Shown here: positions 20,621-42,652 of the stretch, piece after piece
How positions within the stretch are numbered: the stretch's first letter is position 1
Layout: every line of letters starts with the position of its first letter
DNA from: Okamejei kenojei
Taxonomy: Eukaryota
Assembly (NCBI GenBank): GCA_035221665.1
Contig: CM069155.1
Location: 27,466,001 to 27,530,000, forward strand
Reading direction: 5' to 3'
DNA length: 64,000 nt
Position numbers and translations under genes: made by a program
Notes under the pieces: model-generated
Database searches by the model: none
What the model was told of the DNA's origin: nothing
What the model saw: the letters and a program-made list of their open reading frames with translations, nothing else

Positions 20621-21229
20621 CCTCACCTACCTCACCCCACCTCTATCTAAATCTAACCCCTGTGACTACAAATAAACCATGAGGAGGGAGTGTTACTCTG
20701 TTTCAAACTTGCGGTGTCCGTACCCTAGAGAGCCAGTCTAGGCAGAATTAATTTGTTTCCACACTTCGAGTGTAGACTTCTTCGAACTTCAAACATGCAG
20801 ATGTGCTGGAAGGTATAAATTACCCGACCTCGACCTCGTTGCATCTTATTCCGATCCGCATTTTCTCTGTATATATTCCGCACAGCTATATTCTGCACAG
20901 TTTATTTTCTCTTGCGCACTGACTGGTAACATTTGCCTGGATAGCAGGCAAAACAAAGTGCGGTTTTTTTTCTCACAGTTTTCCCTTACACGAGAAAAAA
21001 CCTGCACGACACATGTAAAGGAGGACAGAAAATGCCGGGAAACACTCAGCGGGTCAGGCAGCGAGTGTGGGGAGAGAAGCAAGTCTGGTCGCGGCCAACT
21101 GGGAGTCACGTCTGCGCGGAGGGAGAGAGTGGCCGCTTACTCCTGGTGGGGTGGTCCTGATACTGACCCACTGGCACTGAAGTGACCTTTAGAGCGCTCA
21201 CCATATATTTATACACACATAGACCTTGC

Positions 21230-21510
21230 ATCTAAATGTCCCGCTTCACGTTTTCACCCGCTCCACAGGTCGGAGAGATCTAAAGTTGTTCAGTCCCGCT
21301 GTTTACAATTCTCCTTGGAGGGGAGGAGACGGGAGGGAGGGAAGGAGACTGGAGGGAGGGAAGGAGACTGGAGGGAGTGGGGAGGGGGTGTCAACGCGCT
21401 GAAGGACCGTGGATGATCCCCAGGGGTTGGCGCTCTGGCGAGTGCCCGCCAGCCCCCGGTGAGTCGGTCTGACAATCGCTGGCGCGGTTCAGAAACCATC
21501 CACGAGGCCG
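21230..21510 (+). promoter_or_regulatory. CpG-enriched candidate promoter / non-coding first exon of the ANHX-like gene
   Basis: Local CpG enrichment and a consensus donor ccg|gtgagt at 21458/21459; the next acceptor ttccag| at 22248/22249 precedes the ATG. Confidence 0.5.
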
Positions 21511-21514
21511 GGCT

Positions 21515-22175
21515 GATCCCTCCCTCCACCCTCCCCCTTCTTCTCACACCCACCCCTTCCCCTCGGACCCTCCACTCATCCCTAGCAACATCCTCCCACG
21601 TTCCTTGTTGCCTCACATCCTCGTTCCAACCCTTTCCACCCCTCCCTTCCTCACACCCTCCCCTCTTCCCTTCCCCCTAACACCAACCACTCTCTCCTTC
21701 CTCTCACACCTTCCCTCCACTCTCCCTCATACCCTCACACGCTCATTCCCTCACCAACTCCCTTCCTCAATCTTCCCATTCCTCCCCCCCCCCCCCCTCA
21801 CATTCTACAATCCGTCACCCATTTGATCCTTTACGCCCCCATCCCCCCTCACTCCTCACCTCCCATCACAACCTCACACGTTCCCTCACACCCAGTCCAC
21901 AGTCACTCCATTTCTCCCTCACCTACACCATCTTCCTCTTCCTTCCCCCTCCCCTACATCTCCCAGTCATTCCTCAATCTCACTCCTTTGCCCTTTCTTC
22001 TCATCCCCACCATCTCCTCCCCTCTACCTTTCTGTCCCTCTTTGCTCTTACTCCCTTTCCCATTCCTTCCCCCTTCCTCACTCCCTCTCCCGCTCCTCCT
22101 CTTCCCCTCCATCTCCTCCTCCTCACCTTCTCCCCATCTCCACTTCCTCCTCCTCCCCTCCATTGCCCCCTCCTG
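21515..22175. repeat. ~660-bp C/T-rich low-complexity tract
   Basis: Almost G-free pyrimidine-rich sequence; source of several spurious Pro/Ser and Gly/Arg ORFs. Confidence 0.9.
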
Positions 22176-22281
22176 GTTTCACTGGGCTGTAACTTGGCCC
22201 AGTGAGGAGGTGGGCCGAAGCTCACTGTCTCTTGTCCCCTGGTTCCAGGAGCTGCTGGAAGTGTGAAGAGAGGCCGAGAGG

Positions 22282-22395
22282 ATGGAGGGGAGTCAGAGTC
22301 GACGAGGAGTTCCAGACATGGCTGAGCAACTGCGAGCGGAGGTCTGGGAGCTGCTGAGGGGGCGGGAGTATGACAGAGCCTCTGCCCTGCTGGAG
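22282..22395 (+). CDS. ANHX: ANHX-like homeobox gene, first coding exon (partial SIX domain)
   Basis: In-frame TGA at 22264-22266 precedes ATG 22282 (second ATG 22318 in gacATGg context); MEGSQSRRGVPDMAEQLRAEVWELLRGREYDRASALLE|gtaaac; phase 0; aligns to the SIX-domain segment ending ...ELYKILE. Confidence 0.75.
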
Positions 22396-23169
22396 GTAAA
22401 CCAGCCCGTGACTGCCCATCCCGCTGCCCCTCATTTCATTGACCCTCCCGTTCAACTGACGTCGGCCCGCTCCTCTCTTGCTGATCACTGTGCCCTCCCA
22501 CTGACCACTATACCCCCACCTCTCCCACTGCCCACCAGACCCCAGTTTCCCACTGAACACTGGACCCACCCCTCGCACTGACCACCGGACACTGGCCTCC
22601 CCTCTCCCTGACCTCTGGCAACTCCCAATTCTTACAACTCCATGTGCTTGATATTTCCCTCTCCACAGACACTACCTCATCTGCTTTCTGTTTTCATTTC
22701 AAGCTCTCAGCCTGTGCATTTCGTTTTGGTTTTCCAATGTAATTTCTATCTCTCTGCTGGGATCAGTAGTCCCCTGGCTGCAGGGTAACCATTGTAGCCC
22801 AGTTTTGACCTTCCCCAAAGACTGCAGCCGTGTGCCATGGAGATGGTTGACTGTGGTGAAGTGTGTGAGGTAGGACTAATTCCTCTGGCATTGAGGCTAA
22901 TTGCAGCAGTACACCCTCATTCACATCTTGTGTGGAAAGTATCGACGGGCTGCACAGCTTTGTGGCATCTTTCATGAGAAAGTGCAACCTCTACACATAT
23001 CTTCCAATTATCCACCAACTTCACCAGAGGCCGTCGGTCGGCCTGTGTCCTGGTGCCCTGTATGTTGTGCAGTCTCACCTGCATTGTCACAGATATATTC
23101 ACTTTAACTATTTTGCCATTGTGTATGCTTGTTCTAGGAGTTGCCGCTAGACTCTGCACTTGGAGACAA

Positions 23170-24530
23170 TAGTTGGGTCCGTCACGCAGCATGGAACCAG
23201 GCCCATCATCCCCACCAAGATGCCCATCTACACCATTCCTGTTTGCTCACGTTTGACCAGTATCTCTCAAAACCGTTCCTATCTAAATACCTTTGAAATG
23301 TCTAATCTGCATCAACCATTTCCTCAGGCAGTTTGTTCCACATACATTAGATGCTCGATGTGAAAAAGTTGTCCCTAACATACTTTATCCTCTCACATTA
23401 AAGCTATGCCTTTTAGTTCTTCATTTTCCAGTCCTGGAAAAAAGACAGTGCATTCATCGTATCTGTGCCCTTCCTGATATTGAACACCTCTATACGGTCA
23501 CACCTCCACCTCTGATGCCCTAAGGAATAAAGTCCAAGCCTTCTCAACTTCTCTTTTTAACACCATCTATCAAGTCCTGGGAAGATCCTGGTAAATCTTT
23601 CCTGCACTTTCCAGCTTAATTATATCTTTCCTATAGCAGGGCACAATATTAAAAATGTGGATTCACAATCGTCTTGTAATATAACGTCCCAACTTCTACA
23701 CTCATTGTGTGAGAAGAAACTGCAGATGCTGGTTTAAACCGAAGATAGACACACATCTGGACAGGCAGCATCTCTGGAGAGAAGGAATGGGTGACGTTTC
23801 GGGTCTGAAGAAATAAAAAGGTCTTGACCCAAAAGGTCAACCATTCCTTCTCTCCAGAGATGCTGCCTGTCCCGCTGAGTTACTCCAGCTTTTTGTGTCC
23901 AGCTACTGTACTCATTGTCCTTACTGATGAAGGCTTGTGGGCCAAAAGCCTTCCTCACCTGTCCACCTGAGGCTCCATTTTCAGGGAATTAAATATCTGC
24001 ACTCCTAATTCCCTCGGTTCCACAACACACCCAGGGCCCTATCTTCCATTGTGAAAGTCCTACCCTGGTTTGACTTCCCAAACGCAACACCTTACCTGAA
24101 TTAAATTCTATTTGCCATTCTTGAACCCACTTCCTCAGCAGATAAAGACCCCCCTGCAATTCTTGATAGCCCTCGTCACTGCCTATGATACCATCTAATT
24201 TAGCATAATCTGCAAATTTACTAACCACATCTTGTACATTAACATCCAAATCATTAATATAGATGAGAAATAACAGTGGGCCCAGGACTGATCTGTGCGG
24301 CACATCACCAGTCACAGGCCTCCAGTCTGAAAAACAACCTTCTACCATCAACTGCTTCTTACCATCAAGCCATTTTATGTATCCGATTCAGTAACTCTCC
24401 CTGGATTCTATCTGATCTAACCTTCCAGTGTAAAGTACCATGTGGAATCTCATCAAAAGCCTTGCAGAAATCCACATGGACTACGTCTCCCGCATTGCCC
24501 TCATTGACCTTCTTGGTTACTTACTTCTTC
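23170..24530 (-). mobile_element. CR1 LINE fragment with a nested inverted Penelope unit (~23707-23900)
   Basis: ORF 23989-24351 SDWRPVTGDVPHRSVLGPLLFLIYINDLD...SKFADYAKL is an RT core. Confidence 0.85.
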
Positions 24531-24687
24531 AAAAACCGAAGTTACTATAAGGAATTGAATTGAGAGATCGCTGCAATAAGGCAGAATACAGGTGCTACAC
24601 TGTAAATAACTCCCAGAACATTGTGCTACTGTGGTGAGGGGGTATGGAAGAAATCTTGTGTGTTACATCATACATTGTTCTCATTAG

Positions 24688-24812
24688 ACCTGCAGGATTA
24701 AAGAGAAGGATGTGGTCAGATCTCTGTGGTATGAAGTCCAGTACATGAAACTGAAAGAACAGCTTGGAAAGAGCAAGTTGACGGCAGTGCAGCGTTTCCG
24801 CTGCAGAAAGAG
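24688..24812 (+). CDS. ANHX: ANHX-like exon, SIX domain C-half
   Basis: cattag|...|gtacgc; TCRIKEKDVVRSLWYEVQYMKLKEQLGKSKLTAVQRFRCRKR, compare remembered human ANHX LWNDIHY...LTPVQKFRCRKR; phase 0->2. Not in the ORF track. Confidence 0.88.
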
Positions 24813-25055
24813 GTACGCACGGAGATTTTAACCTGCCTGGCCGGACCCAGAGCACAATAACAGACAGGCAGATCTGCTGAGGCAAGAGGCTGCACATGCT
24901 GGAACCTGGAGCAACGATCTGTTTGAAGAACACAGTGGGACGAGCAGCATCTGTGGGTGGAAAGGAATGCTCGACATAGCTCGAGTGAGTTTGTTGACCA
25001 CTTCCTCCTCCCACTTTCCCTACTGATGCTGCTCGAGCTACTAAGTCCCACCAGA

Positions 25056-25362
25056 GGCAGCACAGCGGTGCAGTGGTAGAGTTGCTGCCTTACATTGCCA
25101 GAGACCTGGGTTGGAACCTGACCATGAGTGCTGTCTGTACGGAGTTTGTACGTTCTCCCTGCGACCACATGGGTTTTCTCCGGCTGCACCGGTTTCTTCC
25201 CACACTCCAAAGACATACAAGTTTCTAGGTTAATTGGCTGGGTAAAATTGTAAATTGTCCCAAGTGTGTAGGATAGTGTTAGCGTACATGGATCGCTGGT
25301 CGGCACGGACTCGATGGGCCGAAGGGCCTGATTCCACACAGCATCTCTAAAGCTAAAAACTA
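25056..25362 (+). mobile_element. Full-length V-SINE/HE1-like SINE
   Basis: tRNA-like head (gcggtgcagtggtagag...ggttggaacc), core gtttgtacgttctccctgcgaccacatgggttttctccgg and CR1-like tail gggccgaagggcct...tctctaaa. Confidence 0.85.
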
Positions 25363-25682
25363 AGCAGCGTATTGAGGCAGACGTGCCTAGATGTCCCTTC
25401 ACAGCACAGCTGTGACACACCAGCAGATAGATGTTGCTTCAATCGATGGCCACAGGCACACATGGCTGGAAATTCACCGGCAGCATTCATGTCCCCCGAT
25501 GTTACGTCGCAAAATCCGTCACGAATGGGGCAACAACAGCATTTCACGCCATGTGGCAGATTGAGCTGCGCTCTGCCAGTTTGGTCCCACGCAGGCTGTC
25601 CCCGTGTCAGCACGTGGAAGGACTGGAGTATTGTGGTCGAAGGTGGACCACACCGTCCCAAAGAAGGTCACTGAGAGACAAT

Positions 25683-25866
25683 GTAGACAAAAGTGCTGGA
25701 GAAACTCAGCGGGTGCAGCAGCATCTATGGAGCGAAGGAAATAGGCAACGTTTCGGGCCGAAACGTTGCCTATTTCCTTCGCTCCATAGATGCTGCTGCA
25801 CCCGCTGAGTTTCTCCAGCACTTTTGTCTACCTTTGATTTTCCAGCATCTGCAGTTCCTTCTTAAA
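25683..25866. mobile_element. Fold-back insertion of the Penelope terminal unit
   Basis: Perfect 74-bp inverted arms 25683-25756 / 25758-25831; flanked by cactgagagacaat (25669-25682) and cactgagagataat (25867-25880). Confidence 0.9.
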
Positions 25867-26508
25867 CACTGAGAGATAATCCTGGATAACCAGGATTCCC
25901 TGGGTCACGGTTCAATGTTATTTCACGTAATTTACTTCAAGATGTCAGTGAGCTCCCCACCCCTTGCATTAACCCCCAACCCCCCCATTCCCCACAATCA
26001 TCAGGCAGCTCATGACCCCACCCGTGACTCCCTCAATACTATTCCTGATTTCCTCTCTCTGCCTCCTCAATGAAAAGATCCTCTACCTGCAATAGCAATA
26101 TAGCAGTTCCCACTCATTTCCCAAACCCATACAACACGTCCCTGTTCCTGATTTCTTGCCCCTCTGCTAACCTGTCTGGTTGGACCCCAGACCCACATCT
26201 CGAGACTGCCTTGTACCTTCCTCAAACACTTTGCCTGGCAGCTTGTTCCAGTTACTCACCACCCTCTGTGTGGAAAAAGTTGCTCCTTGGGTCTAGTTCA
26301 AACCTTCCTCCTCTCACCTTACATCTAAGCCCTCTAGTTTTAGACTCTCCTAACATGGAAAAAAAGACTGCAACCATCCACCTTATCTGTTCCCTTTGTG
26401 ATTTATATTCCTCCATAATGTCACTGCGAGAGTGAAGGTGAGGTACACGATGGAGGACATCTTTGGCTGCCCAATAGGTCTAACAACGGTGCTTCATGTA
26501 CCTTCCAG

Positions 26509-26632
26509 GAACCCGCTGCCCTGCTCTCTGCGTGTGGAGGAATTCAAGACCAGGACCCTGCCTCTGGAGGCCAGAGAACAGCTAAAAGCCTGGGTCAGAG
26601 GAAACAGTGCAAGCCCTAGTATGGCAGAGAGG
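26509..26632 (+). CDS. ANHX: ANHX-like exon, linker and homeodomain helix 1
   Basis: ttccag|...|gtaagg; NPLPCSLRVEEFKTRTLPLEAREQLKAWVRGNSASPSMAER; phase 2->0. Confidence 0.9.
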
Positions 26633-27590
26633 GTAAGGAGAGCCCTGATTAGTACGGATGTCAGAGGCTATGGGGAGAAGGCAGGAGAATGGGGTAAGGA
26701 GCGAGGGATAGATCAGCCATCATTGAATGGTGGAGTAAACCTGATGGGCCGAATGGCCTAATTCTGCTCCTATCATATGATCTTAGGACCTGTGTGACCA
26801 CATCAGGACTGCAGCCTATGAAGTCATTCTAATGAGGAATCAGTGTGGTATAATAACCATGGCAACCAGTCTGCACATAGCAGGCTCTTACAAAACCAGA
26901 TTTTATTCTAATTGTTAACGTGGGTGGAACCAGGGAGAAGCAGGGGCGAATCCCATCTCTCCTATGTCCTCCCTTCAAGGTGCACACTAATTTCCATCAC
27001 CATCCCATCAATCTTCCCCCCCGCCCCTCCCCTGCCCCCTTCCACCTATATTCCTGCCTCTGACTTTACATTTCACTCAATTTTTTAACTTATTTCTTCG
27101 GGTTGTCTTTTCATCTCCAGCCTTTCTCCACCCATTTGCCAATCAACCTCCCCCACCCCCCCCCCCCCCCCCCCGCCCGTATCCACCTATCACTCGCCAG
27201 GCTTTGTCCTGTCCCCACCTCTTTGTCAGCTTCTTCCACCCTCTACAATCAGTCTGAAAAAGGGTGCCAACACAAAACGTCACCATCCATGCCCTTCAGA
27301 CATGCTTCCTGACCCACCGAGTCACTCCAGCACTTTGCACTTTACGCAAGATTTCAGCATCTGCAGTTCATTGTGTCTCCTCCTATTTTCTCCCATTTTT
27401 TTTGTTTGAGTCTGCTCTTGTTGTCCACGAGGCGAGTGACTCCTGGTGTAGAGTGGTTATTGGGTGTATGGAGAATGAGTGGAATGAATTTGTCGTGTGT
27501 TCCCGCTCCCTGAGCCAGAACATTGGCAGCGACCCACGGGTCCCACCCTGAGACTTAGTGAAAGCCTGACCGGCCCGTATCTCCCTACAG

Positions 27591-27786
27591 GACAAGCTGA
27601 TGGTGGGGACCCGTCTGAATAAGCAGCAGATCTGCAACTGGTTTGCAAATTACAGGCGGAAACTCAAGAAAGCCGCCAGCCAGCAAGAGCGTGTTGGAGA
27701 GTTAAATCAGAGCCCGGGATCTCCCCAACATTCGATGAGAAGTCCGCAGATCACTGTCGGGGGCAGCGGCTGGCCGCCTGTCTCAG
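27591..27786 (+). CDS. ANHX: ANHX-like exon, homeodomain helices 2-3
   Basis: ctacag|...|gtaact; DKLMVGTRLNKQQICNWFANYRRKLKK...; WFANYRR is the ANHX-type recognition helix; phase 0->1. Confidence 0.92.
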
Positions 27787-27949
27787 GTAACTCCGCAACT
27801 CTAACATTCCCTATCAATATGTTCTCTCTCCCGGTTCATTCTCCACTTCTGGCTTTTTCTCAGTTTATTTCCCACTGATCCCGATATTCTGTATCCTGGT
27901 TCTTGGCTGGTTTTCATTTGATTTGTCAATGCTAGGACTGTGTGCACCA

Positions 27950-28230
27950 GTTCTAACCCATCCCCTTCCATCAATGCCGCATTCCCAATCAGGAACTCTC
28001 CCCTGGTGGATTCCCCATTCCCGACCGCCCCCTCCCCTTGGTGGATTCCCCATTCCTAACCTTTCCTTACTCCTGTAGGATTCCCCATTCCCAGCCTGCC
28101 TTTCTCCTGGTGGATGAGCCATTCCCCAAATTCCCTCTCCCTTGGTAGATTTCCCATTCCACACCTTCTCACTCTGGTGGAATCCCATTCCCCACCTTCC
28201 TTGTCTGCTCTGAATTCTCCATTCCAACAA
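27950..28230. repeat. Diverged ~30-35-bp tandem repeat
   Basis: Repeated ggtggattccccattccc motif, ~7 copies. Confidence 0.7.
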
Positions 28231-28474
28231 TCCATACTAAACAAAACACAGAATGCTGGAGTAACTCAATGGGTTTGGCAGCATCTCTGGAAGACATGGA
28301 GAGCTGACATTTCAGTTTGGGACGATTCTTCAGATGAAGGGCCCTGACTTGAATCATCACCTTCTTCATGTATTCCAGAGATGCTGCCTGACCCACTGAC
28401 TTTGCATTTAAAAAAAAACTGCATCTGCTGTTCCTTGTGGCCACATGTTCCTTCTCAATTCCAATTCCCAACCT

Positions 28475-29115
28475 AGATTTAGGTATATTGTTGTCACATT
28501 ACCGAGATACAGTGAAAAGCTTTGCTTTGCACATTATCCAAGCATCTCAGATATACTATACCTAAAAAACAATTGTCAAAATCAAGTACAGCAAATAGGG
28601 TAATGGGGAAGAAACAGAGTGCAGAATATAGTTCTCTTCTTTTCGTGTCTATGTTGTTACAAATGTTACGTTCGTCCTGAAAAAGACGGAAGCTTCCGGC
28701 GACAACCAGTGGAAGCCATCACCTGCCACATTAGTTGATGGTGGTGGCAGAATTAGCTCAGGATACTTCCAGTTTCCAGCCCTGCAATGTGGACGCTTCG
28801 GCTGTGGGGCCAGGTTCTCATCGTTTAAGTGCACAGGTTCCATAGACAAAGTCCAATGTCCACACTCGTACAGTATACTAGTTCATGGAAGGACCATTCA
28901 GAAGTCAGATAACAGAGGAGAAGAAACTTATTCCTGAGTTTGGTGGTGCACGCTTTCAAGCTTCCGTACCTTCTGTCAGGCAGGAGCAGGAAGAAGGAAC
29001 GACTGGGGTGGGACCAGTCTTTGATTATGTTGACTGCTCTTCCGAGGCAGTGTAAAACATAGATGGGATCAATGATGGGAAGTCTGGTCTGTGTGATGGA
29101 CTGGGTCACCACTTG
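28475..29115 (-). mobile_element. Rex1/Babar LINE 3' fragment
   Basis: ORF 28825-29118 CLGRAVNIIKDWSHPSRSFFLLLPDRRYGSLKACTTKLRNKF; 3' tail shared with copies at ~4370-4740 and ~2010-2060. Confidence 0.75.
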
Positions 29116-32100
29116 CAACTGTGTGCAATTTTCCCTGCTTCCTTTAACCTCACCCAGCTCACACCCCCATATTCACGTTATCCTCACTGGGGGCCCTTTT
29201 CCCGCACTGTCTTTAACCTCTCCAGTTCCCATTCCCGCACAGCCTTTAACTTCTCCAGTTCCCATTCCCACGCTTGCTTTAACCTCACCGGAATCCTGTA
29301 CCCATGCTCCCTTTGACCTCACTGGGATCCTGTTCCGACACTTCCTTCAACCTGCATTAAAAAAATCAACTCAAAGTGGTGTGATTGACGAGTAAAATTC
29401 TATACTCCAGAAAACCTGGTGACACAAAAGGCTGGAATCTGGAGCAGAAAAACCCAAAGTGCTGGGGAAACTCAATGGGTCAGGCAGCATCTGCGGAGAG
29501 AAATGAACAGATGGCGTTTCAGGGTGGGAGCTTTCTTCAAGACTTCCATTCACCAGTCCCAACGTTATTGGATTGTGGGGGTTTTATGGTCTATATATTT
29601 CCCCACAAAGGGAGATCGGACTAAAACATAGTGTACCAGATGTAGTGTCACCAGGACTCCATGTAATTGGAGCAGATGTCTCTACTGAAACTCTTTTGCA
29701 CTGTTTGTAATTGCTAATTGGTTGCTATACCTCTCCGCATTCAACAAGGCTCTGAAAACAACTTTGAACCTTGAATTCCTATCTACAGCTTTGAATCTAA
29801 CCACACGCTGAATAAAAAATTCTTCCTCGAGTCACCACTGGTTCTTTGGCCAATGACTTTAAATCCGTCGCGTCTCACTATCGAGTCTTTTTTTCCTGCA
29901 TTTTGATTGTTTTAACAGCTCCATCCAATCTCACCCCTCCAATCTCTCTTCCAGGAAAACCACGTCCCTCACACTATTGTGCAGAGTCCCTGGCTACCTT
30001 GCCTGCCCATTCAGCTACCTGTTATACTCCTGCTCATTGAATCATCCACCTTGGTATTATTCACAAACTTGTCAGTGCTTCAGCGAGTTTAAAGGGAGCA
30101 TGGGCGCGGAGCTTCTGCAGGTTTGAATTAGTATGTGCTGTATGCAAGTCCATTTCACCTCCTTATCTGTTTGGGCATTCCCTTAATTTCCACTCCAGTT
30201 CTGTGGCTTCTGAAGTGACTGATGTGGGTCCCACAGACTCTGCCGCAGATAGGGTGGGTAGAGAGAGAGAGATGCAGCACGGAAACAGTCATCTTATACT
30301 AATCACATTTTTGTTATTCTCCTCACATTCTCATCAACTCCCCCGGAGTCAACCTACACACTTTACAGCAGCCAATTAACCTACCCACCCATGCCTCGTT
30401 TGGGACGTGCGCCATGCTGTCACGGGGAGAATACGCAAGCTACACACACAACACCTGAGGTCGTGATTGATCCCTAGTCTCTGGCACAGTGAGGGAGTGG
30501 CTCTACCAGCTGCCTGACCGTGCTGGACAGTTTGTAAGAAACCCTGTTCTTTTTGCTATTTATGCAGGGCTTTAGTGTGGTCAGGAATCAAGTTCTCATT
30601 GCCTTCGTGACAGCTGCTTATTCACCGTGAGTGGCTGAGGGCCAGAATTCGCCTGGGGTCACTGGCGATGATTGAACTTTTGCCCCATCTGCCCAGTAGT
30701 CTCTAACCACGATGAACGTCGGAACACAATTCTATCCGGTGTCCAACTTGGAAGCACCGTGGGCTGTAATGTGTAACTCTCTGAGCTGTGCTTTTTCAGA
30801 CTGGCAGGATCTGGGTCCCAGCCACTCTGCCTATGGGGTACCTTCCCCCCTCCATATCAGGCACGTCTAAGCTCCTTGCACAGGCTCGCTCAACTTTCTT
30901 GTTGAAGTGTAGTCACTGGGAAAAATCCAGATTATCCTTGGCACGTTCCCAGAACACAGCCAGTTAAATGATCTGTCATGCAGTGATAATGGCTGAGACA
31001 GGAATCTCGGGCAGCAGAGTTGTGCAGCAGGTAGTGCTGCTGACCTCAGGTTCCCGTCTTGTGTGTTAAGTTTGTACGTTCTCACTGTGGCCTCGTGGAC
31101 TTCTCCCACGTGCTCCAGGTTCCTGGTAGGTTCACTGGCCACTGTGAACTCAGTGCACTGAAATGGCAAAGGAATCAAAGAGGAATTAGTGGGCATGTGT
31201 GTGGGAGGGCAAGTGGGCAAGTGCCCCTGGACGCTGGCAGGCTTCAATCATGCAGAGGTGTCAGCCTGAATCGTGCCCAAGGCTGTGGGCTGTGCCAACG
31301 ATGTAATCCTGGCACTGAGCACAGCTGAAGTGGATGATTCCTATCAGCACTAGACTGCCCGCTCACTGCCCTGTTGGCTCATTTAGGAATAGGTCTGGGT
31401 TGTGTGGGAAGCTATGGACTGTTCTGCTTTGGCACCGTAAAGACTGGTGGCTTGTAAAAACGGTGTCTTAGCATCATATAGCACAGAAACAGACGCATTG
31501 GCCAAGCTTATAGATGCCAACCAAGATGTCCCATCTACACTGGTCCCACCTGCCCGCGTTTGGCCCATATCCCTCTAAACTTTTCCTGTGTGTTCAATAA
31601 AACCAGAGTATTTCTGTAAACTGTTATGCATAAGGCTCTGTTCTTTCCCCAGATAACTATACTGCCGAGCATTTTGAATGGATTAAAAGTGAACCACAAA
31701 CTAGTGTGATGGACTACACAGCTGCCACAAGACCAGGACTGTCCATCCCACAGTAAGCGACCCAAGCCTTTGTGAATAGCGTAGTGTCAGTGATTGAGTG
31801 GGGAAGACGGAGATACTGTGTCTATCCACAGCAGCAGGTGGTGGAGGCAACTATTTATTTCCTGTCGGGTGAGGGTCACCCTCTTTGGGGCCACCTTCCC
31901 CATGAACAGGCCATGTTGAATCACCTTGCTGCTAAATGCCAAGCCAGGTCTTCATTTCAGTTGAAGGGAGTGACTAGGGTGAGATTTGTATTCATTGGCC
32001 AGTTAGATAACATCTCAAGTTAAAATATTGGCTGCTTGAGAAGTCTTCTTTGGTTTTTTTTTCTCACTAAAGGTTGGGCATAAACCCCAACTTTGGACAG

Positions 32101-32687
32101 TTCCCCACTGATACCTCCGTCCAACAAGGCCCGACTCCATCCCGGTTGCTGCCTGTTATCCTTTCTCAGTGGCGCAGTTGGTAGAGCCACTGACTCTCTG
32201 CGCTGGAGACCCAGGTTCAATCCTGATCTCCGGCATGTTTTCTGGAAGCTCCGGTTTCATTCCAAAAACATGCGGGTTGTTGATTCATTGCCCGTTGTAT
32301 ATTGGCCCCTGCCCTGGAGTGTAGAAGAGTGGTAGAGTCTGGGGGGAGTTGGTGGGAATGCCGGGGAAAATGAAAATGTAGGATTGGCGTAAATGGTCAT
32401 CATGGATTCGACGGGCCAAAGGGCCTCTTTCCACACCATATCTCTCTGTGAATATATGACAGTGACCGGGACTGGGCACACGGAGCGTGAGAGAGAGATT
32501 GAGAGATGGTGGGAACTTGAACTGAATTTTCTGTAATCAGTCTGTGACCCGTAGTACCAGACCTGGCAAAATGTGTCTGTCTCAGTTTCAACATTTCTGA
32601 AATTGCTTCCTCTTTCTCACAGCCTCTTGGGGGGAGGTTTTTGGGTTTCTCTCCTTTGTGTGAAGCTTTCAGGTGAAGTGGGAGACT

Positions 32688-32817
32688 GGGGGGAGGGAAG
32701 GAGGGGGAGGGGAGGAGGGAAGGGAGGGGAGGAGGGAAGGGGAGGAGGGAAGGGGGGGAGGGGAGGGGGGGAGGGGGGGAGGGGAGGGGGGGAGGGGGCG
32801 AGGGAAGGGGGGGAGGA
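32688..32817 (+). repeat. Pure G/A-rich tract (GGGAGGG-type)
   Basis: ~130 nt of G-runs separated by A, with essentially no pyrimidines. Confidence 0.9.
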
Positions 32818-32917
32818 ATATTCTGTGTGTTGCTGCGACTGATGCGAGTGTCTTGTTTGATGACCAGGTGCTGTATCTCGGGACCACCCTCCCACCAGCT
32901 CTTCCTCCCTGATACAG

Positions 32918-33436
32918 ACCCTGCCACCTTGCTGAACGCAGCCTCGGGTTACTGGTGCCAGCCGGCGGAAGCATCCCACAGCCTCGCCCAGCCGCACCTG
33001 CCCCTCTGCCCCTGCATGTCGATGGCCTTGAAACTTGAACAGACCCCGCCGTTGATGGTGACCTCCCATTCGGCCTTTCCCCACAGACTCCTCGAGACGG
33101 CTCTCTGGTCCAGCGGGCAGTTTGAGAGTGCAGCAGGTCTCGAGCAGTTCTACCCAAGCCAAGATCTCCTCCGTCAAGGCAGCTGGAGTCCGTGCAACAG
33201 GGGCCATTTGTCACCGCCTGATGCCAGCCCCTTCCACCCGTTCAGTAACCTCTTCCTCACTAACGTACGGCAGTCGGACGTCAGAGCACTCCTGAGGGAG
33301 GAAATGGTTAATGGCAGCTATCTGCACATGATGTGCCCGGATATTGGCAATGCCAGCCAGATACTGCTGGACGGGAGCACTAAGGAGGATTCCAGCTGGC
33401 CAGGGCTCTTGCCCAGTAGTGCCAGCCATTACCAAG
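32918..33436 (+). CDS. ANHX: ANHX-like large Pro/Ser-rich exon
   Basis: Within ORF 32827-33555; pyrimidine tract + acag| at 32917/32918 (phase 1) and strong caag|gtaagg donor. An alternative acceptor at 32868 is possible. Confidence 0.7.
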
Positions 33437-33607
33437 GTAAGGACAGGTTAGATGTTGGTCTCATGGGCTCTTTGGTAAAGGTATTGTTTGATGCGAAGGT
33501 GAACAACCCCAGTCGATGCTGGACTATTGTCATCTCAGTCAGTAAAGCGCAGTAGGGGCTTCAACAGGTGAATCTCCACCCCACACTCACCAACCTTGCT
33601 CACACTT

Positions 33608-35084
33608 GTAGCAATGTTACAAAAATTTGAGATTTTAAAAATCAAGTCTGCAATTTATCCCATCAGATAAAGCATAAAAAGTTGAATTTAACACCTAAAT
33701 TCACTTTCATATCTTCAGTATTAAAAAAGTTATGGCCATTTTCATACTCAGAAATTAGCATCTTGTTCCCTATTGCTTTTGCATTGACTTAACACAAAAG
33801 CTGTGATCGAGGTCATTCAAAAGCCCATAACTTTGTTAAAAATTAAGATAACTGAAATTAATTTTCAGTTATTATAGATTGAAACATTCTGAAACAAATA
33901 TGAAACAATCTTACTTGGATGACCTGAAATTAAAGCATATAATTAGTTAGTTACCCAATTGTAGCTAATTACAAAATTAAATTACTAGATCTAAACATCT
34001 ATCCATTTCTTAAGAAAAATTAACATTTTTAAATAGCCCAATGTCCAAATAATTCACAATATAACATGATTTTTAAATCTCATTGTCATGAATTTATAGG
34101 CCAAATGGAAGGAATTTAGTGTTTAATTCCTGTAAATTAATGGCCATTTAAATCATCTTGCGAGCGGGATTTTGTGGAACGCAATCGTTTGGAACGTTGC
34201 GGTTGCGGTGAATTTAAACCCCATATCGGCAGGAAAAATACTGCCGGTTCGTATGGGGCCTAAATCACCTTTTCGCAACGTAAAATGTGGATTAAGGTAA
34301 TCCTAAGAAGCACGTGTCGGAACTGAACGAGGAGGAGGACACAAATGCAGGCTCAGACGTAGGGCAGATCTGTATTCAGAGTTTAATCGGTCCAAGTCGG
34401 TACACGGGTAAGCAAACACTGAAGCAACAGTAATCTAGGAGCAGGCAAAAACAGTGGTCGAAAAACAGGCCGTGGTCGAGCACACAAAGTCACAATATTT
34501 CTAGAGCTGGAACGAGGTGATACCAGGTAGCATACACAAGGAACTGGCAAAGAAACCTAAAACACAAAGGCTTAAATACAGACTTAACAGGGGATAACGA
34601 GACACAGGTGAAACACATCAGGGAGGGGTCAACAATCACAGGAAATGGCACCTGAAACAAGAGGGGATGTGAGGCACCAAAATAAAACAAGAATGCAACC
34701 TCAAATACTCAACACCAATAAGGAACAGAAACTAGATTAAACGCGAGACCTGACAGCACGTTTATATGTAAAATAAACGGCTTTCCTTTAGCTGTCCTGT
34801 ACCTGACACCCGTCCCCGTTGTCGGCGTTGACGGCATTAGAAGCGGCTTTTTATTTTACTCCAGCGCTGAAATTGTCCCTCGATTTAAAAAAAAATTCAC
34901 AGAACGGCTGTCGGAACAAATCTTCAGCATTTGCTCGCTCCCCGAGAAAATCTATCCAGGACAGGCGGTAGAAAACCGCATTTTAGCCCCGCCCCCCCCC
35001 CCCCCCTCAAAGGCACCAAAGTCGCGCACACGGCCAGTGGCAGAACTGCAGCGCCGCTGAAGGTACGTTTTGTAACATAACTAC
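33608..35084. mobile_element. Non-autonomous TIR DNA transposon, superfamily unassigned
   Basis: 17-bp TIRs GTAGCAATGTTACAAAA / reverse complement GTAGTTATGTTACAAAA (2 mismatches); 5-bp TSD CACTT at 33603-33607 and 35085-35089; AT-rich, no transposase ORF. Confidence 0.8.
34315..34755 (-). mobile_element. Solo LTR (probably Ty3/Gypsy), 441 bp, nested in the TIR element
   Basis: TGTC...GACA termini; 5-bp TSD GCACG at 34310-34314 and 34756-34760; minus-strand TATTTAA (~34572-34578) followed by ATTAAA (34382-34387). Confidence 0.85.
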
Positions 35085-36389
35085 CACTTGCCTCTTCTCT
35101 CTGCAGAACCTAATGCAATGGTAGCAGCACCACCATGATTGGTACAATTGAAACGTTTTAGAAACATCAGGACTAGAAGCATCTTCTCTGCCATTCAAGG
35201 GAATCGTGCTTGATCTTTTATCGCTGCACCACTTCCTTGCACTAACCCCATGTCCATCCATTCCCTTAATAAATAAACATCAATCCATCCCTTCCTTCCA
35301 CATCCCTCAGTGTAGAATATAATGTTACAGCTACAAAGTGCAGATAAAAGAAAGAGTGCATGGACTGCATGAGGTAGATTGAGGGATCGGGTCAAAAAAA
35401 AAAACGCAAGTACAAAATGTGCTGGAAATACTCAGCAGCTGAAGCGGCATCTGCGGTGGGAGAACAGTCCGTTTCAGGTCAGTCGCCTTTCCCCGGTCTT
35501 AATATGAAGGGATAAAGGAGCAAATCAGTGGACATTTGGCCAATACAGAAACATACAGCCCTGGAGGAGGAGACCGGCAGCGGTGTAAAGGCAAGTGGGG
35601 TCCAGGCAGATCAACATGGTGAGGGAGCAGATCAGCCATGAAGGCACGGAGAATGAGACGGACTGACCCTTGTCCCAAGCTCCAGTCTCTGCGGCAGGAA
35701 CCAACCAAAACAATGGCAGGAGGGGGCCCGTTCAGCCCCTCAAACCTGCTCTTCCTCTAAATGACCAGGAGCAGGAGCCTTGGTTATCACCATCAGCAGT
35801 GTGTCTGCCCTCTGTGACATTGACAATAGACAATAGGTGCAGGAGTAGGCCATTTGGCCCTTCGAGCCAGCACTGCCGATAAGCGGAGCTAAACCTTCGG
35901 AGCTAAACATCAGAGCTAAATCTTCCTCCTCTCTCCACTGATGGAGCAGAATGGTTGGAACCTCCTGGTAGTAACTAGTGATCTCTGGCACCATAGCACC
36001 TCATCCACATTGTTGGAAATATCATTATTAATTGTACTCCCACCTCTATCCTGAGCATCCTCAGCCCTCGGAAACTTTGATTCCTGGTATACTTTTGTGA
36101 GGGTGACAATTGTTCTGTGTGTTTGGTCCATCAGCTCCTTTACTCGATGGAAGATTCCTTGCACCTGGAGGGTTTGGTGGTCCTGAAGAGAGTGAGGCAG
36201 GGTCTGGGGGGATGCCGCTCTGTGTAGATGGAGATGGACCCAGGAGCTACAGAGGAGGTAGAGTGTGAGAATGTTTGTGTTCCCGGTTTACCTTTCAACC
36301 GGGATTTCCACGTCAACATAGAACACGATGACTGTAACAGCCCTTTGGTATTGATGGAAGATCCGAAGTCGATTAGTTGCGTTCATTGG

Positions 36390-36970
36390 TCATACAGTCA
36401 TACCACATGGAAACAGGCCCTTTGGCCCACTTTGCCAGGCCTATCAAGATGGCCATCTACCCCATCTACACTAGTCCCACCTCCCCGCCGCGCCTGGCCC
36501 ATATCCCTTTAAACTTTTCTTATCCATGGTACCCTGCCTGTTCAGGCACTGAGCCTCATGGATCATGTTTTTCCCACTAGTTTTAGACTCCCCTGCCATA
36601 GGAAAAGACTGTGGGTATTCACCTTATCTGTACCCTTCATGACTTTATAAACCTTTATAAAGACACCCCTCAGCCTCCTACGCTCCAGGGGGAAAAGACC
36701 CAGCCTAGCCAACCTCTTCTTATAACTCCAGATCCAGAAACCTCCTCGTAATTTTGTTTCTACACCCTTTCGAATTTCATGACATCCTTCCTATAGTAGG
36801 GCAACCAGAACTGTACACGGAGCGTCAAATGTGGCCTTACCTACATCGTGTACATCTGCAACTTGTCCCAACTCCTGTACTCAATGCACTGACCAACAAA
36901 GGCAAGCATCCATATACAGCTTCTTCACCTCCTTATCTACCTGCGTCACTACTTTCATGGAATTATGTAC
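36390..36970 (-). mobile_element. CR1 LINE 3' fragment
   Basis: CR1 tail (acaggccctttggccc...ttggcccatatccc) and decayed ORF2; similar pieces at 46030-46360, 46670-46900 and 52720-52915. Confidence 0.7.
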
Positions 36971-37267
36971 CTCACAGAAATTGATGTGTGATGCAAAGCC
37001 AGGCCTTTGCAGTGGAAGTGATGTCCCCACGTCCGTCACTGCTTAGACTCCTCAGAGCTGAGCTCGCCTGTAGCTCCCCACCAGGGATGACGTCGTAGTA
37101 AGCTCAGACTGTGGAGAGCATCGGAGCTAAACCTTTCTCCTCTCACCCTGATGGACTCTCAATGCAAAAGCCATCAGATTCAGGCTGATGACCTCACTCC
37201 CAACGATGAATGAGCTTTTCTAGTTCGGGGGTCCCGAGGCTAATTATGTTTTCATATATTTTTCCAC

Positions 37268-37575
37268 GGGCAGTCTCGGTGGTTCAGCGGTAGAGTTGCT
37301 GCCTTACAGAGAATGCAGCGCCGGACACCCGGGTTCGATCCCGATTACGGGTGCTGTCTGTACGGAGTTTGTACGCTCTCCCCGTGACCTGCGTGGGTTT
37401 TCTCCTAGATCTTCGGTTTCCTCCCACATTCCAAAGACGTACAGGTTTGTAGGTTAATTGACCTTGGTAAATGTAAAAATTGTCCCTGGTGAGTGTAGGA
37501 TAGTGTTAATGTGTGGGGATCGCTGGTCGGCGGGCTGAAGGGCCTGTTTCCATGCTGTATCTCTAAACTGAAAAT
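37268..37575 (+). mobile_element. V-SINE/HE1-like SINE with intact Pol III boxes
   Basis: A-box-like ggtggttcagcgg, B-box GTTCGATCC 37333-37341, V-core and CR1-like tail; siblings at 45281-45580 and 61480-61750. Confidence 0.85.
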
Positions 37576-37776
37576 AAATATGAGCTGAGCTAAGACCTGT
37601 TAAATCAATGCAGGGTGAGAATAGAAACCTGCTCTCTGCTGTCAATGGTTCAATGCAACTTTCACCAAATAATGCAGAAACAGCTTTTACTGGCTGGTAT
37701 TTGATGAGCAACGAACAAAACACAAGGGCCAGAGGGTTTATTGTACTGGGCTGTGCAGTGGTTTATTTTTCTACAG

Positions 37777-37942
37777 GGTATGCCATGGATGTGGTAGTTA
37801 ACTCTGGTCATTGGATGACTGATTGCCCTAATGTAACACTTCACGCAGGTTTAAATCAGCCATCACAAGCAACCCTTGGAGAATGCTCTGAAGACTGCAG
37901 TCCACAAAGCAACGTTGATGGTGTGAAGATAGATTGCAAGAG
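37777..37942 (+). CDS. ANHX: ANHX-like exon
   Basis: ttttctacag|...ag|gtaaga; GYAMDVVVNSGHWMTDCPNVTLHAGLNQPSQATLGECSEDCSPQSNVDGVKIDCKR; phase 1->2, compatible with neighbours. Confidence 0.6.
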
Positions 37943-38776
37943 GTAAGATGAGGTTGTGGACAAAGGAAGGCATGGAGCTTCTTTGAATTTGTTTTTCCTG
38001 TGGATTACTTTATCGAAGTGAAAAATCTGATTTTAATTAATATTTTTCATTCTCAAAAAATACTTTTTTAATACAAGTAGAGATGAAGTCATTAGGTCGA
38101 TCTTCACTCACCATTATCCATCACTGAAACTTGCCCCCTCCAGTCTGCTCTGCCATTCAGTGAGATCACTTTCTTGTTCCCCACAACAGGGTGGTACTGA
38201 ACCTAATCTTCGGTCTTGAAGAAGGTCTTGGGAGACGGGGGCAGGGATCTGTGCTGGTGCCTTGGAAAGACACTGTGGCTTGGAAGCTGTGAATCAATGT
38301 GACCTGAACCTTTCGGGTGGGAGCAGTCCAGGAACAAGGCAGCCAACACAGATATCAGCCAACACAGATATATCTCTCTGCTGCTCAGGTGCTGGTTGAA
38401 TTGTTTTGTGTTTAAATGACACTCGTTAAGGAGTCAGCCTTCTTCCTGTAATTGGCAGAAGTTTCTTCACATTGTACAGCTCATCTCCTTCCTATTCACC
38501 CTGTATATTCATCTAACAAAAGCGACACATCAGGTGGCGTTGCTGAGCTCTGTCCCAGTGAGGCTGGCTGACGCCACTCATTCATTCACCCATCTTCAGC
38601 ATTTTTATTCCATCACAATCTTCATAAACTCTCTCTTGTCTGTTTCCATCCAGACTTCTGGTGTTGAAAGTACCGAGCCAGTTCAGCACACTGTCATCTT
38701 GCTCCCGTTTTATGGAGAGTGGGTGGAATTTCAGGGGGCAGTAACTATTTGACTTGTTTTTCTCTTGTGTGTGCAG

Positions 38777-38831
38777 GCTGACGTACGTAAAGGTTGAGAC
38801 GGAAGTGTGGTGCCTTCCCCAACACAGCCAG
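38777..38831 (+). CDS. ANHX: ANHX-like short exon
   Basis: gtgcag|...cag|gtccgt; LTYVKVETEVWCLPQHSQ; phase 2->0, exactly bridges the flanking exons. Confidence 0.5.
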
Positions 38832-40387
38832 GTCCGTGGATAAGCTCATCTCTCCCCCCCACCCCATGATGTTGCCTACTTCACACGCTGTATTGTTCAC
38901 GTCACGAGCTGGACACAGAGGCAAGCTCTTCCCATTATAAACCCTGTTAGATCCTGCACTCCATTAATAATAATACTCCTTATTCCAAAAAATAATGCCT
39001 TGTTTCTTGACCTTACACTGCCTTAAATCACGAGACCTGCCTCCTCCCTCCTCACCTTGAAACAAGTGCAGAGCGCTCGGGGTTTTTTTTGCCACAAACC
39101 TCAGACCTGTTCGTCCAACTGCCTCTGTGCTCTCTCCCTTTGCCTCACCCCAGATCTGCCCTCAAAGCACCCTGAGTTGGATGATCAGCCATGATCATAT
39201 TGAATGGCAGTGCAGGCTCGAAGGGCCGAATGGCCTACTCCTGCACCTATTTGCTATGAACTCCTCTCTTCTTTCCCTGTGTTCTCTTTGACCCCATGAG
39301 GCACCTCCAGCTCTCTACACCCTTCTGCGTCAAACTTAATGCCAAGAAACCTCTGCCCCTGTCCAATCAGTTCCATTACTCGTACCAAATCCCTCGGCCC
39401 CAGCTAAGCATTTTTGGTTTAATTTATCTCTCCTAATATGAGAGTCCCCACTGTTAATTAATGTTCTGAGTTGTGGTTGAATTGGTCGCACTGCTGCTCC
39501 CGGAATCAGGAAACTGTTTGTTCACATTCCGCTCCAAAGACTTGAGAACAGATGGTTCACCCACTCTGGTCAGCACTGAGGGCCTGTCGAAGTAGGTGTC
39601 TTTTACATCAGAACATAAACCAAAGCCCCCTCTGCTCTCAGGAGACTGAAGGGTTACCTGGGAAAGACACAAAATGCTGGAGTAACTCAGCGGGACAGGC
39701 AGCACCTCTGGAGAGAAGAAATGGGTGACATTTCCGGAAGGAATGGGTGACCTTTGAGACCCGAAGAAGGATCTCGACTCAAAACATCACCCATTCCTTC
39801 TTTCCAGAGATGCTGCCTGTCCTGCTGAGTTATGCCAGCATTTTGTGTCTTATCTTCGGTTTAAACCAGCATCTGCAGTTCCTTCCCACTCCAGGGTTAC
39901 CTGGAAGTGCTTGGAAGAGTGGTGGAGTTTGTTTGTTGTCCCAGCCAATATTTCCAAGTCGACCAGACCACTGAAGCAGACTTACCGAGCGGTGTTTGCT
40001 CGTTCTCCCTTTGAGCCTGTGGGATTTCCCCACACACGCCCGTTTCCTCCAATATCCCAAAGACATGTGCGTTCACAGGTCATTTGGCCACTGTGTGTAG
40101 TTGAATGCTACAATCTGGGGAGAGCTGATTGGAATGAGGGCAGAATGATATGGGATGAATGAAGCAGGCTTCAGCAGGGAATCAATAAATGCAAGCTTAA
40201 TGGTTGGCACAAACGCAATGGGCTGAAGGGCCTGTTTCCGTGTGTACGACTCTATGACATTGAGGGTGGGCTGGTTTGTGATCCCTGCCGATACCCGCTG
40301 TCGCTCTGCATAGCTGGAATGGACCCACGCAGGGACTGGTGTGGGTCAGTGACATGCAGAATGATGTTCCTGTTCTGTGTCTTCCAG

Positions 40388-40516
40388 GTTCAGCAGGACA
40401 CTAAACTGGACATAGCAGCACAGGCCCTGATCCAGCTCTCCCAGATACCCACCGGCAGCCTTTCGACACCAGACGGCACTGCTTCCACAGACTGCCAGAG
40501 AACATGGGAGTCGTAG
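40388..40516 (+). CDS. ANHX: ANHX-like terminal coding exon
   Basis: cttccag|; VQQDTKLDIAAQALIQLSQIPTGSLSTPDGTASTDCQRTWES-TAG; the AAQALIQLS helix resembles the remembered ANHX C-terminal GARMLLEFS. Confidence 0.65.
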   Translation, partial: VQQDTKLDIAAQALIQLSQIPTGSLSTPDGTASTDCQRTWES

Positions 40517-42646
40517 GAACACTGCAAGCAATGCCCTTTATCTCAGCTCCCTTGGTAGTCAGGAGAGCTTTATCTGTGTGAGGCAACGGTCCATTGAGAA
40601 CACAGTCAGCAAGCGAGTGGGGGAGGAGGGCATCAGTCTGGGTTCACTCTAACTGGTTGGCCGTAGAGCAGACGATCTTCGATTTACATGGCAAGCAGAG
40701 CCCATTTAGCGAACGGAGGAGCCAGAACTTATGACGGTAAATGCAGAAGGTTTCCCATTTAAACGCAGCAGGATTTGATTTGATTGATTGTGAGAATAAT
40801 TACCCACAGTAGCCGTTCAGAAAAACAATCGCAACGCCTCAGCAAACTGGTCACTGGGCTTGAGCACCAGTGGAGTTACCCAACACACCAGCTCCAGTTG
40901 GGACAGTATTGTCTAGAGGGAGGTCATATGGCACATTGTCCCCCATGTGGATTCCTTTAAAGGCACTGTCATGTTCTTCTCCCTTTATCTCCATGATCTT
41001 GCAATTTTTTTTTTTACCATTCCTTTTTAGGCAGGGCCATTTCAAACATAACACCTAAATCCTTGGGGAAAAAACACTCTTACCGTTTCATTTGGTTTAC
41101 CCATAAACACCTGGGGCTCGCGTACAGATCTTCCTTTTCAGTGCACCCTGCGCACTATTGAAGCTGACGCAGCCCCTCCACAGTGAGCCCATCTACGAGG
41201 CAAGCCGATGCTCAGATATCTATTCACACCCTGTAGCATTCTTGTGCCGATCCCCACATTCACCTACATTATGGGGCCTTCGTGCAGAGCCCGCTGTGGG
41301 TCTCAACTCTGGCCAGGGATTGCTTGTTTTGTTTTCTTGTTTCGCATTTCATTTGTTCGGTACAGACACATATTCAAAGATGACAACTTATCCTCATATC
41401 AATTTCTGCACTAGATAGGTTGCTCTGGTTTCAAATTCCATGCCCCAGTCTACCTCAGCAATTGAAATCTCTTCAACTAGCCCACCAAAATGTTAAAATC
41501 TCTGCCAAATACCATTTGCCTTCTGTATTAGTGAGAATAGAGGCACAGTCCAAGCAATCTCCCCTTGTATTTATGTCCGAGGATGGCTGGTGATAATTTG
41601 GTGGGTTTGTACAGTTGTGCTCCCAGCCCAGTAAACCTTGCTTCAGGTATGGTGCCCAGAACCTTGCATGATAATCCAGTGGTGACTTCAGGGTTTAGTG
41701 TGATTGCAACAAAACATCTTTGTTATTCTGGTCCTGTTTGATTTTTATCCTTTATTTGTATGTGGCTACTCAATTTAATATTCTGTAGAAACAAGCAACT
41801 GCAGATGCCGGTTTACAAAAAAAAAAGACACAAAGTGCTGGAGTAACTCATCGGCCAGGCAGCATCCCTGGAGAACATGGATTGCTGATGTTTGGGATTG
41901 GGATGCTTCTCCAACACGTTGTGTCTTTTCTACACTAATGTATTGTCTACTTAGACTCCCCATATCTCTTTGGACTTCCAAGAATCTTAGCTTTTCAACC
42001 TTTGGAATAATTTCCTGAATTTCCAAAATGAATGAACCAATGCGAATCTGTGTGGAAACACAGCTGCCACAGATCTTCCCATTCACTTCATCCATCCGTC
42101 GTTTTACGATCTGGGTGCTTTGTGTATCATACAATACTACTCATGTACAGCAACAGGCAACTTGGACTTATAATGGCACATTAATTCTGAGGCTAGTTTC
42201 CGAGGACAGAACTTAGTGGGTTTCGATTGTTAGTTTTACACGTTGTCACACAAGTTAACTTATGTTTTAAGTATGTTTGCTTAACGTTGCTTAACTTTTA
42301 AGATACATCAACTCTCAACTTTTAAGATCCATTTTCATTGACCAGTATTTGGCGTGTCTCTTTGGCACAGAATGAGTGTAGACAAGAGTGAATCTATTTG
42401 TGTGTTTGGAGTTTAATTCTCTCGTTGCAGAATGAGTGGGTGGTGGGAGGGAGCTGAGGCTGAACATGGCTGTTTCCCATTCACCGTGGATGGACACGCT
42501 CCAGAACTGTAGGTACTAGTCCCAGGGGTCCACCCACCTACCTCATGACGGCTTGTTATTCATGGCAGAAAATATATATTTTAAATGTTCTGAATTAACA
42601 TTTTGTATTTATAAGTGTTTTCCAAACCTTATTCTGAGCCTATGTT

Positions 42647-42652
42647 AATAAA
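42647..42652 (+). terminator. Candidate polyadenylation signal of the ANHX-like gene
   Basis: AATAAA in an AT-rich 3'UTR-like stretch ~2.1 kb after the stop, followed by GT-rich sequence. Confidence 0.55.

Follow-up and report, generated by a model that had tools for sequence, protein, structure and literature searches.

Homeobox genes of the SINE class encode a SIX domain (SD) of ~115 amino acids (aa) N-terminal to the homeodomain, and homeodomains of the TALE class carry three extra residues between helices 1 and 2 (PMC2211742; this and the other papers are cited for the excerpts that bear on each point). ANHX, renamed from LOC647589 (PMC5094009), was described by Zhong and Holland as an unclassifiable gene of placental mammals, absent from chicken and frog and located next to zinc-finger genes at human 12q24.33 and on cow chromosome 17, pig 14, dog 26 and horse 8 (PMC3141429); another study counts it among examples of the SIX class (PMC5928047). 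In human, ANHX is a marker of spermatogonia (PMC9713473); it is also expressed in oogonia, and oogonia-like cells form in higher yield with it (PMC11850904). In RefSeq, proteins of birds, crocodilians, turtles, squamates, marsupials and monotremes already bear the name ANHX, and searching titles and abstracts, with subscription papers, most supplements and the NCBI and Ensembl orthology tables outside the search, we found no report of a fish ANHX. Here we analysed a 64,000-nucleotide (nt) stretch of the genome of the skate Okamejei kenojei (the window), in which a preliminary description had placed an ANHX-type gene between DEPDC5 and YWHAH. We find it very likely that this gene is a real, intact and previously unnamed skate ortholog of ANHX. 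It is a new member of a known family and not a new kind of system.

The nearest known system is ANHX of amniotes (XP_053135800 of a lizard, XP_042697563 of a turtle and XP_008061242 of a tarsier). A HMMER search with coding exon 2 of the skate gene alone against 1.84 billion representative sequences returned three matches, i.e. a protein of the electric ray Narcine bancroftii, a squamate-like fragment and lizard ANHX, and no SIX protein at E 1e-3 or better. In the squamate-like genomic open reading frame (ORF) the matching region coincides with coding exon 2 at either end, which, read at the protein level, suggests that the two intron positions flanking this exon are common to the skate and the squamate-like ORF. 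A profile search gave 266 matches, the best 120 of which were the Narcine protein and 119 amniote proteins, 110 of them named ANHX at source. Given that the profile included lizard ANHX, the resulting list is biased and served solely as a source of sequences, proteins under 238 aa being left out; the unbiased tests of identity were pairwise scores, with SIX1 (4EGC) as the sole SIX comparator. All 119 amniote ANHX-family proteins matched the window protein, with scores of 75.9-109.6 bits, and the Narcine protein scored 88.5-116.1 bits against the same 119 vs 36.1 bits against SIX1. Turtle ANHX scored 96.9 bits with the window protein vs 41.2 with SIX1. A hidden Markov model (HMM) of amniote ANHX only gave coding exons 2, 4 and 3 its three best scores (E 3e-11, 1e-5 and 2e-5) among 3123 six-frame peptides of the window, the next best peptide having E 3 and coding exon 1 falling outside the top seven; judged by these E-values, the match of the amniote model to the window is far in excess of chance. 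With single exons as queries, Atlas and PDB gave no usable match to coding exon 2, coding exon 3 or the last exon.

The residues of the core point in the same direction. In 117 of 121 sequences, Ala50 and Tyr52 are present and helix 3 lies at the same distance from the SD end, four sequences having been dropped because one anchor pattern failed. WFANYRR was invariant in all rows of an alignment that includes those four (38/38), and its use as an ANHX feature is derived from this alignment, not from a published definition. Of 63 positions with a conservation of 90% or more in amniotes, the window protein retains 39. Compared by eye with the supplement of PMC3141429, its homeodomain shares 25 of 60 positions with human LOC647589/ANHX without a gap and 18 of 60 with SIX1 with one gap. 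The SD and homeodomain core aligns gap-free to sauropsid ANHX and has in common with it FRCRKRNP, the one-residue loop insertion and WFANYRR; median identity to amniote ANHX is about 39% over the best local alignment. Sequence features named in the preliminary description are present: LTAVQRFRCRKR lies in the exon 2-3 junction region, WFANYRR at 27639-27659 in coding exon 4, which is matched by Leucoraja XP_055511614, and the codon for Ala50, where SIX proteins have lysine, at 27645-27647. The loop between helices 1 and 2, one residue longer than in SIX1 and two shorter than in TGIF1, was seen in an alignment of the Narcine ortholog, to which the window protein aligns gap-free in this region.

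These comparisons bear on the idea that the gene is a divergent canonical SIX gene, e.g. SIX1/2-like or six9, that converged on ANHX-like residues. SIX1 is its best match among solved structures by sequence and by fold and the only PDB match at E 1e-3 or better, helix 1 has Trp as in SIX1 where amniote ANHX has Phe, and a 'SIX homeobox 9' cluster came third in Atlas (0.83) behind the top cluster 'ANHX protein' (0.90, a value of 0.9 being a lead only). However, the PDB searches returned no ANHX structure as a competitor to SIX1, ANHX scores exceed SIX1 scores by 50-80 bits, and the protein lacks Lys50 and has the loop insertion, FRCRKRNP and Tyr52 in common with ANHX, so that such convergence is extremely unlikely. 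The 'SIX homeobox 9' chordate cluster has 263 members. A literature search on six9 gave, among the matches listed, only fungal namesakes, and six9 combined with six7 and zebrafish gave none. Like SIX1 and other SINE proteins, the skate protein has its SD N-terminal to the homeodomain, keeps the equivalent of SIX1 R110, and its helices, as far as present, fold alike. Unlike them, it has a partial SD without the EYA-binding helix 1, Ala50 for Lys50, Tyr52, a homeodomain of 61 residues vs 60 aa and no equivalents of W122 and Y129, and three introns split its SD and homeodomain. SIX1 encodes SD and homeodomain in one exon. The likeness to TALE proteins (TGIF1, MEIS and PBX) lies in Homeobox_KN being the best homeodomain model and in helix 3, which on its own matches TGIF1 best in PDB; unlike TALE, the protein has one extra loop residue instead of three and a SIX domain. 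Together, reciprocal scores, diagnostic residues, the ungapped alignment, the top Atlas cluster and an exon that may be shared bear out the preliminary assignment to ANHX rather than to a canonical SIX family.

The coding model, built by inspecting splice sites and by tblastn with the skate RefSeq models, comprises ten exons, 1629 nt and 542 aa with zero internal stops, and its introns have GT/AG ends and compatible phases throughout (Table 1). The junctions 24812/26509 and 26632/27591 of the preliminary description have canonical GT/AG ends and are phase compatible. We could not recover its total of eight exons, 1428 nt and 475 aa: whichever ATG is used, the ten exons yield 475 aa in no combination, and a brute-force search allowing two more exons after exon 6 gave five arithmetic solutions, none of them with boundaries supported by RefSeq homologs. 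The donor of exon 7 (36257) was picked among four trials as the GT site agreeing with homologs. A candidate exon at 30800 was rejected, having no frame-keeping donor, and the Leucoraja model joins 27786 straight to 31653; another at 38654 is used by no homolog. At the 5' end, an in-frame stop (22264-22266) precedes the ATG of coding exon 1, and the observed/expected ratio of CpG is 0.69 in 20900-21500 vs 0.43 in 30000-40000. At the 3' end, the AATAAA at 42647 is the sole canonical poly(A) signal in 40301-43500 and would imply a 3' untranslated region of ~2.1 kb. The frame of exon 6 runs open for 39 codons into the following intron (33437-33555), as it does in three skate-like genomic ORFs, which may reflect an alternative short C-terminus or chance.

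The closest relatives of the window protein are those of Leucoraja erinacea (90% identity), Amblyraja radiata (88%) and Rhinoraja longicauda (82%), and these identities mark the host as a Rajidae-like skate. The preliminary description expected that an automated pipeline could label such a gene SIX-like; instead, RefSeq calls them 'uncharacterized', and the three skate models are truncated, starting only at coding exon 4, 5 or 6. A full-length batoid counterpart exists in Narcine bancroftii (XP_069789716/XP_069789717), also an 'uncharacterized protein' in RefSeq. It resembles the window protein in sequence (41% identity over the full length, 61-74% in the core), in its truncated SD and in the C-terminal motif, which is kept in isoform X1, and differs from it in having about 32 more N-terminal residues and no 36135-36257 exon. 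The absence of this exon from both Narcine isoforms may reflect a gain in skates, a loss in rays or alternative splicing. Residues shared with Narcine number 24 of 38 in coding exon 1 and 25 of 41 in coding exon 3, and coding exon 2 is 74% identical to Narcine and 50% to lizard ANHX. A word-based search with Leucoraja residues 1-40 gave no match and missed Narcine too, and this negative carries no weight. At 22249-22281, in a frame out of step with the main ATG, there is a weak likeness to Narcine residues 19-27; a longer N-terminus may have been lost in the skate through a small frameshift.

Whether a true ANHX ortholog is decaying or functionally reduced in skates, through weak expression of the 5' exons or relaxed selection on the homeodomain, can be weighed on these comparisons. 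All three skate RefSeq models begin only after the SIX domain, the SD itself has lost its first third, and neither of two upstream ATGs is in frame. Two further observations fit decay and count against the assignment as a functional ANHX as well: the end branch of the tree is 0.54 for the window protein vs 0 for Narcine, and among skates the identity of exon 6 (167/189) is not above that of the intron read-through (35-36/39). On the other hand, no stop interrupts the 1629 nt of the ten exons, the splice sites are canonical, and truncated models are also what a germ-line-restricted gene is expected to yield. Identity between skate and Narcine is 31/42, 25/41 and 18/27 in the core (61-74%) vs 55/165 (33%) in exon 6, a contrast that indicates purifying selection acting on the core. 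On these figures we consider decay unlikely, and an intact gene is the reading we keep.

Pfam matches to the SIX domain span profile positions 42-112 of 113 in Narcine and start at position 7 in lizard. Skate and ray are without the N-terminal third of the SD, about 55 N-terminal residues relative to amniote ANHX, and so do not have the full-length SIX domain of amniotes; the Pfam SIX1_SD match of coding exon 2 alone falls below the curated cut-off. An HMM of the amniote N-terminal part found no match in batoid proteins or in the six frames of the window (best E about 1). We regard the missing third as a probable batoid loss, which would not disprove orthology. The AlphaFold model, made for the Narcine ortholog rather than the window protein, has four SD helices (46-112) predicted with confidence and three homeodomain helices (131-190), with a low-confidence N-terminal helix before them and a disordered tail after them; the mean predicted local distance difference test score (pLDDT) is 57.6, and 112 residues reach at least 90. 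In SIX1, V17 in helix 1 is required for EYA binding, and W122 and Y129 are tied to DNA binding (PMC7063838). V17 aligns to the portion absent in batoids, and Lys50, W122 and Y129 are not kept.

Several observations weigh against the assignment to ANHX. The three skate RefSeq models are without the SIX domain and without most or all of the homeodomain, and the 5' junctions are backed only via Narcine, whose protein runs colinear with that of the window over every one of these junctions. Beyond the core of SD and homeodomain we found no significant similarity to amniotes, and the tails cannot be aligned. There is no shark, chimaera, bony-fish or amphibian ANHX among the best 120 of 266 matches, leaving a large gap in the taxonomic distribution of the family. 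In a tree of 25 rows taken from about 120, batoids stand apart from amniotes, most amniote groups are recovered and the squamate-like fragment falls with squamates; this tree is unrooted, holds ANHX-family rows only and has long batoid branches, so that monophyly relative to SIX is outside its reach. One turtle, Mauremys mutica, has three ANHX-like records on a single 24.1-Mb contig, the contigs with ANHX being of 30-35 Mb in most other turtle assemblies listed, and a local duplication is possible in this species.

The lack of similarity beyond SD and homeodomain and the absence of intermediate taxa among those 120 matches would also fit an ancient paralog of amniote ANHX, hidden since an early vertebrate duplication, in which case ANHX would still be old and the loci would differ. 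The neighbourhood adds to this, since the skate locus lies between DEPDC5 and a 14-3-3 gene, unlike that of human ANHX beside the zinc-finger genes of 12q24.33. The placement of human ANHX on chromosome 12 in the preliminary description agrees with this location (PMC3141429). Distal human chromosome 12q (HSA12q, 107-132 Mb) and central HSA22q (17-30.8 Mb) together make up the smallest ancestral eutherian chromosome (PMC2681463). Because both segments represent one ancestral chromosome, the discrepancy between chromosomes 12 and 22 is no argument against orthology. We take human DEPDC5 and YWHAH to lie near the end of that 22q segment, and presume that the genes listed alongside them at chicken chr15:9-10 Mb are genes of 12q24. 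The chicken list itself includes DEPDC5 and YWHAH (PMC7402339); the part of it that is cited here names no ANHX, a further point against the assignment, and such lists omit many unnamed loci. Against paralogy stand the common origin of the human ANHX segment and the presumed DEPDC5/YWHAH segment, the absence of a second ANHX-like lineage among the best 120 of 266 matches, and a core alignment that is gap-free except for a one-residue insertion in mammals. We therefore judge hidden paralogy very unlikely and orthology the best reading.

The window contains the gene order DEPDC5, ANHX and a 14-3-3 gene (eta or gamma), and DEPDC5-ANHX-YWHAH may be the ancestral neighbourhood, published maps lending this support at the scale of chromosomes only. 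Given a batoid ortholog, ANHX must have originated at or before the split of cartilaginous and bony fish; ANHX therefore probably dates to the first jawed vertebrates. The earlier proposal that ANHX is at least as old as the jawed-vertebrate ancestor thus stands if the skate gene is orthologous.

The protein combines a partial SIX domain and a homeodomain with a long disordered tail, which like that of ANHX ends in a short hydrophobic motif. From what is known of homeodomains, helix 3 would bind DNA, and Ala50 and Tyr52 in place of Lys50 and Arg52 would direct it to a site unlike that of SIX1; because Lys50, W122 and Y129 are not kept, we infer such a difference in site. By alignment, the first third of the SD with EYA-binding helix 1 is missing, and because the region of SIX1 V17 is absent in batoids, the protein would not recruit the EYA co-activator. 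The helix in the last exon might recruit Sin3-HDAC and thereby repress transcription, as it fits a Sin3 PAH1-binding pattern of the Tet1/SAP25 type. In the Tet1 Sin3-interaction domain (SID), a spacing of small-x-x-small-Leu-x-x-Leu is required and I894A is tolerated (PMC6168491). The skate motif, AAQALIQLS, is unchanged between skates and Narcine X1 and fits this spacing, with an Ala where I894A is tolerated, and the SID pattern occurs in five of six batoid proteins and in 154 of 20000 shuffles. A relaxed, post-hoc pattern fits the skate and 73 of 119 amniote tails.

Several results speak against this step. AAQALIQLS is without the bulky second residue of the SAP25 pattern and fails several positions of the PAH2 pattern, as far as these are set out in the cited part of PMC7948954. 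The SID patterns were composed after the sequences had been seen, and the strict form is found in none of the 119 amniote tails. A PDB search with the last-exon motif found no match, an HMM of the amniote C-terminal motif misses the skate motif, and a profile places the skate motif third, with 59% of shuffles scoring as high. Because the pattern is post hoc, occurs in 154 of 20000 shuffles and in its strict form in 0/119 amniote tails, Sin3-mediated repression is offered as a hypothesis. Action in germ cells, i.e. oogonia and spermatogonia, would be carried over to batoids by analogy with the human data. With these steps combined, we tentatively propose, at somewhat less than even confidence, that the protein is an EYA-independent, repressive germ-line transcription factor. 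A wider scenario is doubtful as a whole; in it, ANHX is a separate, ancient SIX-derived germ-line lineage already present in the first jawed vertebrates, batoids lost the EYA helix and repress through Sin3, and the gene began between DEPDC5 and YWHAH, the mammalian copy having relocated later.

The candidate and both neighbouring genes lie on the + strand, and Pfam matches and exon frames agree with the position between DEPDC5 and a 14-3-3 gene given in the preliminary description. The 3' end of DEPDC5 is marked by Pfam DEPDC5_CTD matches at 8805-8972 and 16179-16469. The 14-3-3 gene starts with an ATG at 57638 and has its second exon from about 63711; this exon (63709-63999) is intermediate between eta (168.4 bits) and gamma (167.4 bits), so that from sequence alone the name YWHAH is unsettled, and adjacency to DEPDC5 favours eta. 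We call this neighbour YWHAH because gene lists of pig (PMC10734178) and chicken (PMC7402339) place DEPDC5 and YWHAH together. An Rfam scan of the window gave no match. The tandem repeats found are simple or low-complexity arrays, all outside coding exons; a C-rich array (57043-57204) lies immediately 5' of the CpG island of the 14-3-3 gene, and a G/A-rich array (32688-32817) ends 50 nt short of the exon 6 acceptor. Short interspersed repeats recur in large numbers across the introns. Frames at 50109-50961, 23989-24387 and 56184-56630, all on the - strand, resemble fragments of a long interspersed nuclear element (LINE) reverse transcriptase.

Table 1. Features of the skate ANHX locus and its neighbours in window coordinates. 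Coding segments coincide with the coding exon rows, except that the first is 22282-22395.
Feature	Position	Strand	Evidence
DEPDC5 last exons (upstream neighbour)	2326..16471	+	Pfam PF19418, exon frames
TATA-like box upstream of putative start site	21204..21213	+	sequence only
Putative non-coding exon 1; GTGAGT donor, two out-of-frame upstream ATGs	21230..21458 (about)	+	sequence only
Coding exon 1; ATG 22282, start of remaining SIX domain, phase 0	22249..22395	+	tblastn E 9e-9
Coding exon 2; C-terminal SIX-domain helices, phase 2	24688..24812	+	Pfam SIX1_SD E 1.8e-4
Coding exon 3; linker, homeodomain helix 1, one-residue insertion, start of helix 2, phase 0	26509..26632	+	amniote-ANHX HMM E 2e-5
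Coding exon 4; homeodomain helices 2-3, phase 1	27591..27786	+	Pfam Homeobox_KN 27.9 bits (above cut-off)
Coding exon 5; phase 2	31653..31752	+	tblastn of skate RefSeq models, 87-92%
Coding exon 6; Pro/Ser-rich, predicted disordered, phase 1	32868..33436	+	skate RefSeq models; ortholog pLDDT <50
Coding exon 7; 123 nt, in-frame skippable	36135..36257	+	in all three skate RefSeq models, 76-90%
Coding exon 8; phase 2	37849..37942	+	skate RefSeq models
Coding exon 9; phase 0	38777..38831	+	skate RefSeq models
Last coding exon, to TAG; holds AAQALIQLS (40415-40441)	40388..40516	+	skate RefSeq models, Narcine
AATAAA, putative poly(A) signal	42647..42652	+	sequence only
14-3-3 eta/gamma gene, probably YWHAH (downstream neighbour, cut by window end)	57638..64000	+	Pfam, scores, frames

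ANHX is one of five factors for human oogonia-like cells, mouse and rat are reported to have lost it, and its function is uncharacterised. The batoid models of RefSeq already include a full-length protein, yet give it no ANHX name. An ortholog as deep as that of skates points to residues of importance, i.e. WFANYRR, FRCRKRNP and possibly the C-terminal helix, and the batoid truncation, which merits follow-up, suggests that the SIX domain can do without its helix 1. Skate embryos may be offered as a model for ANHX.

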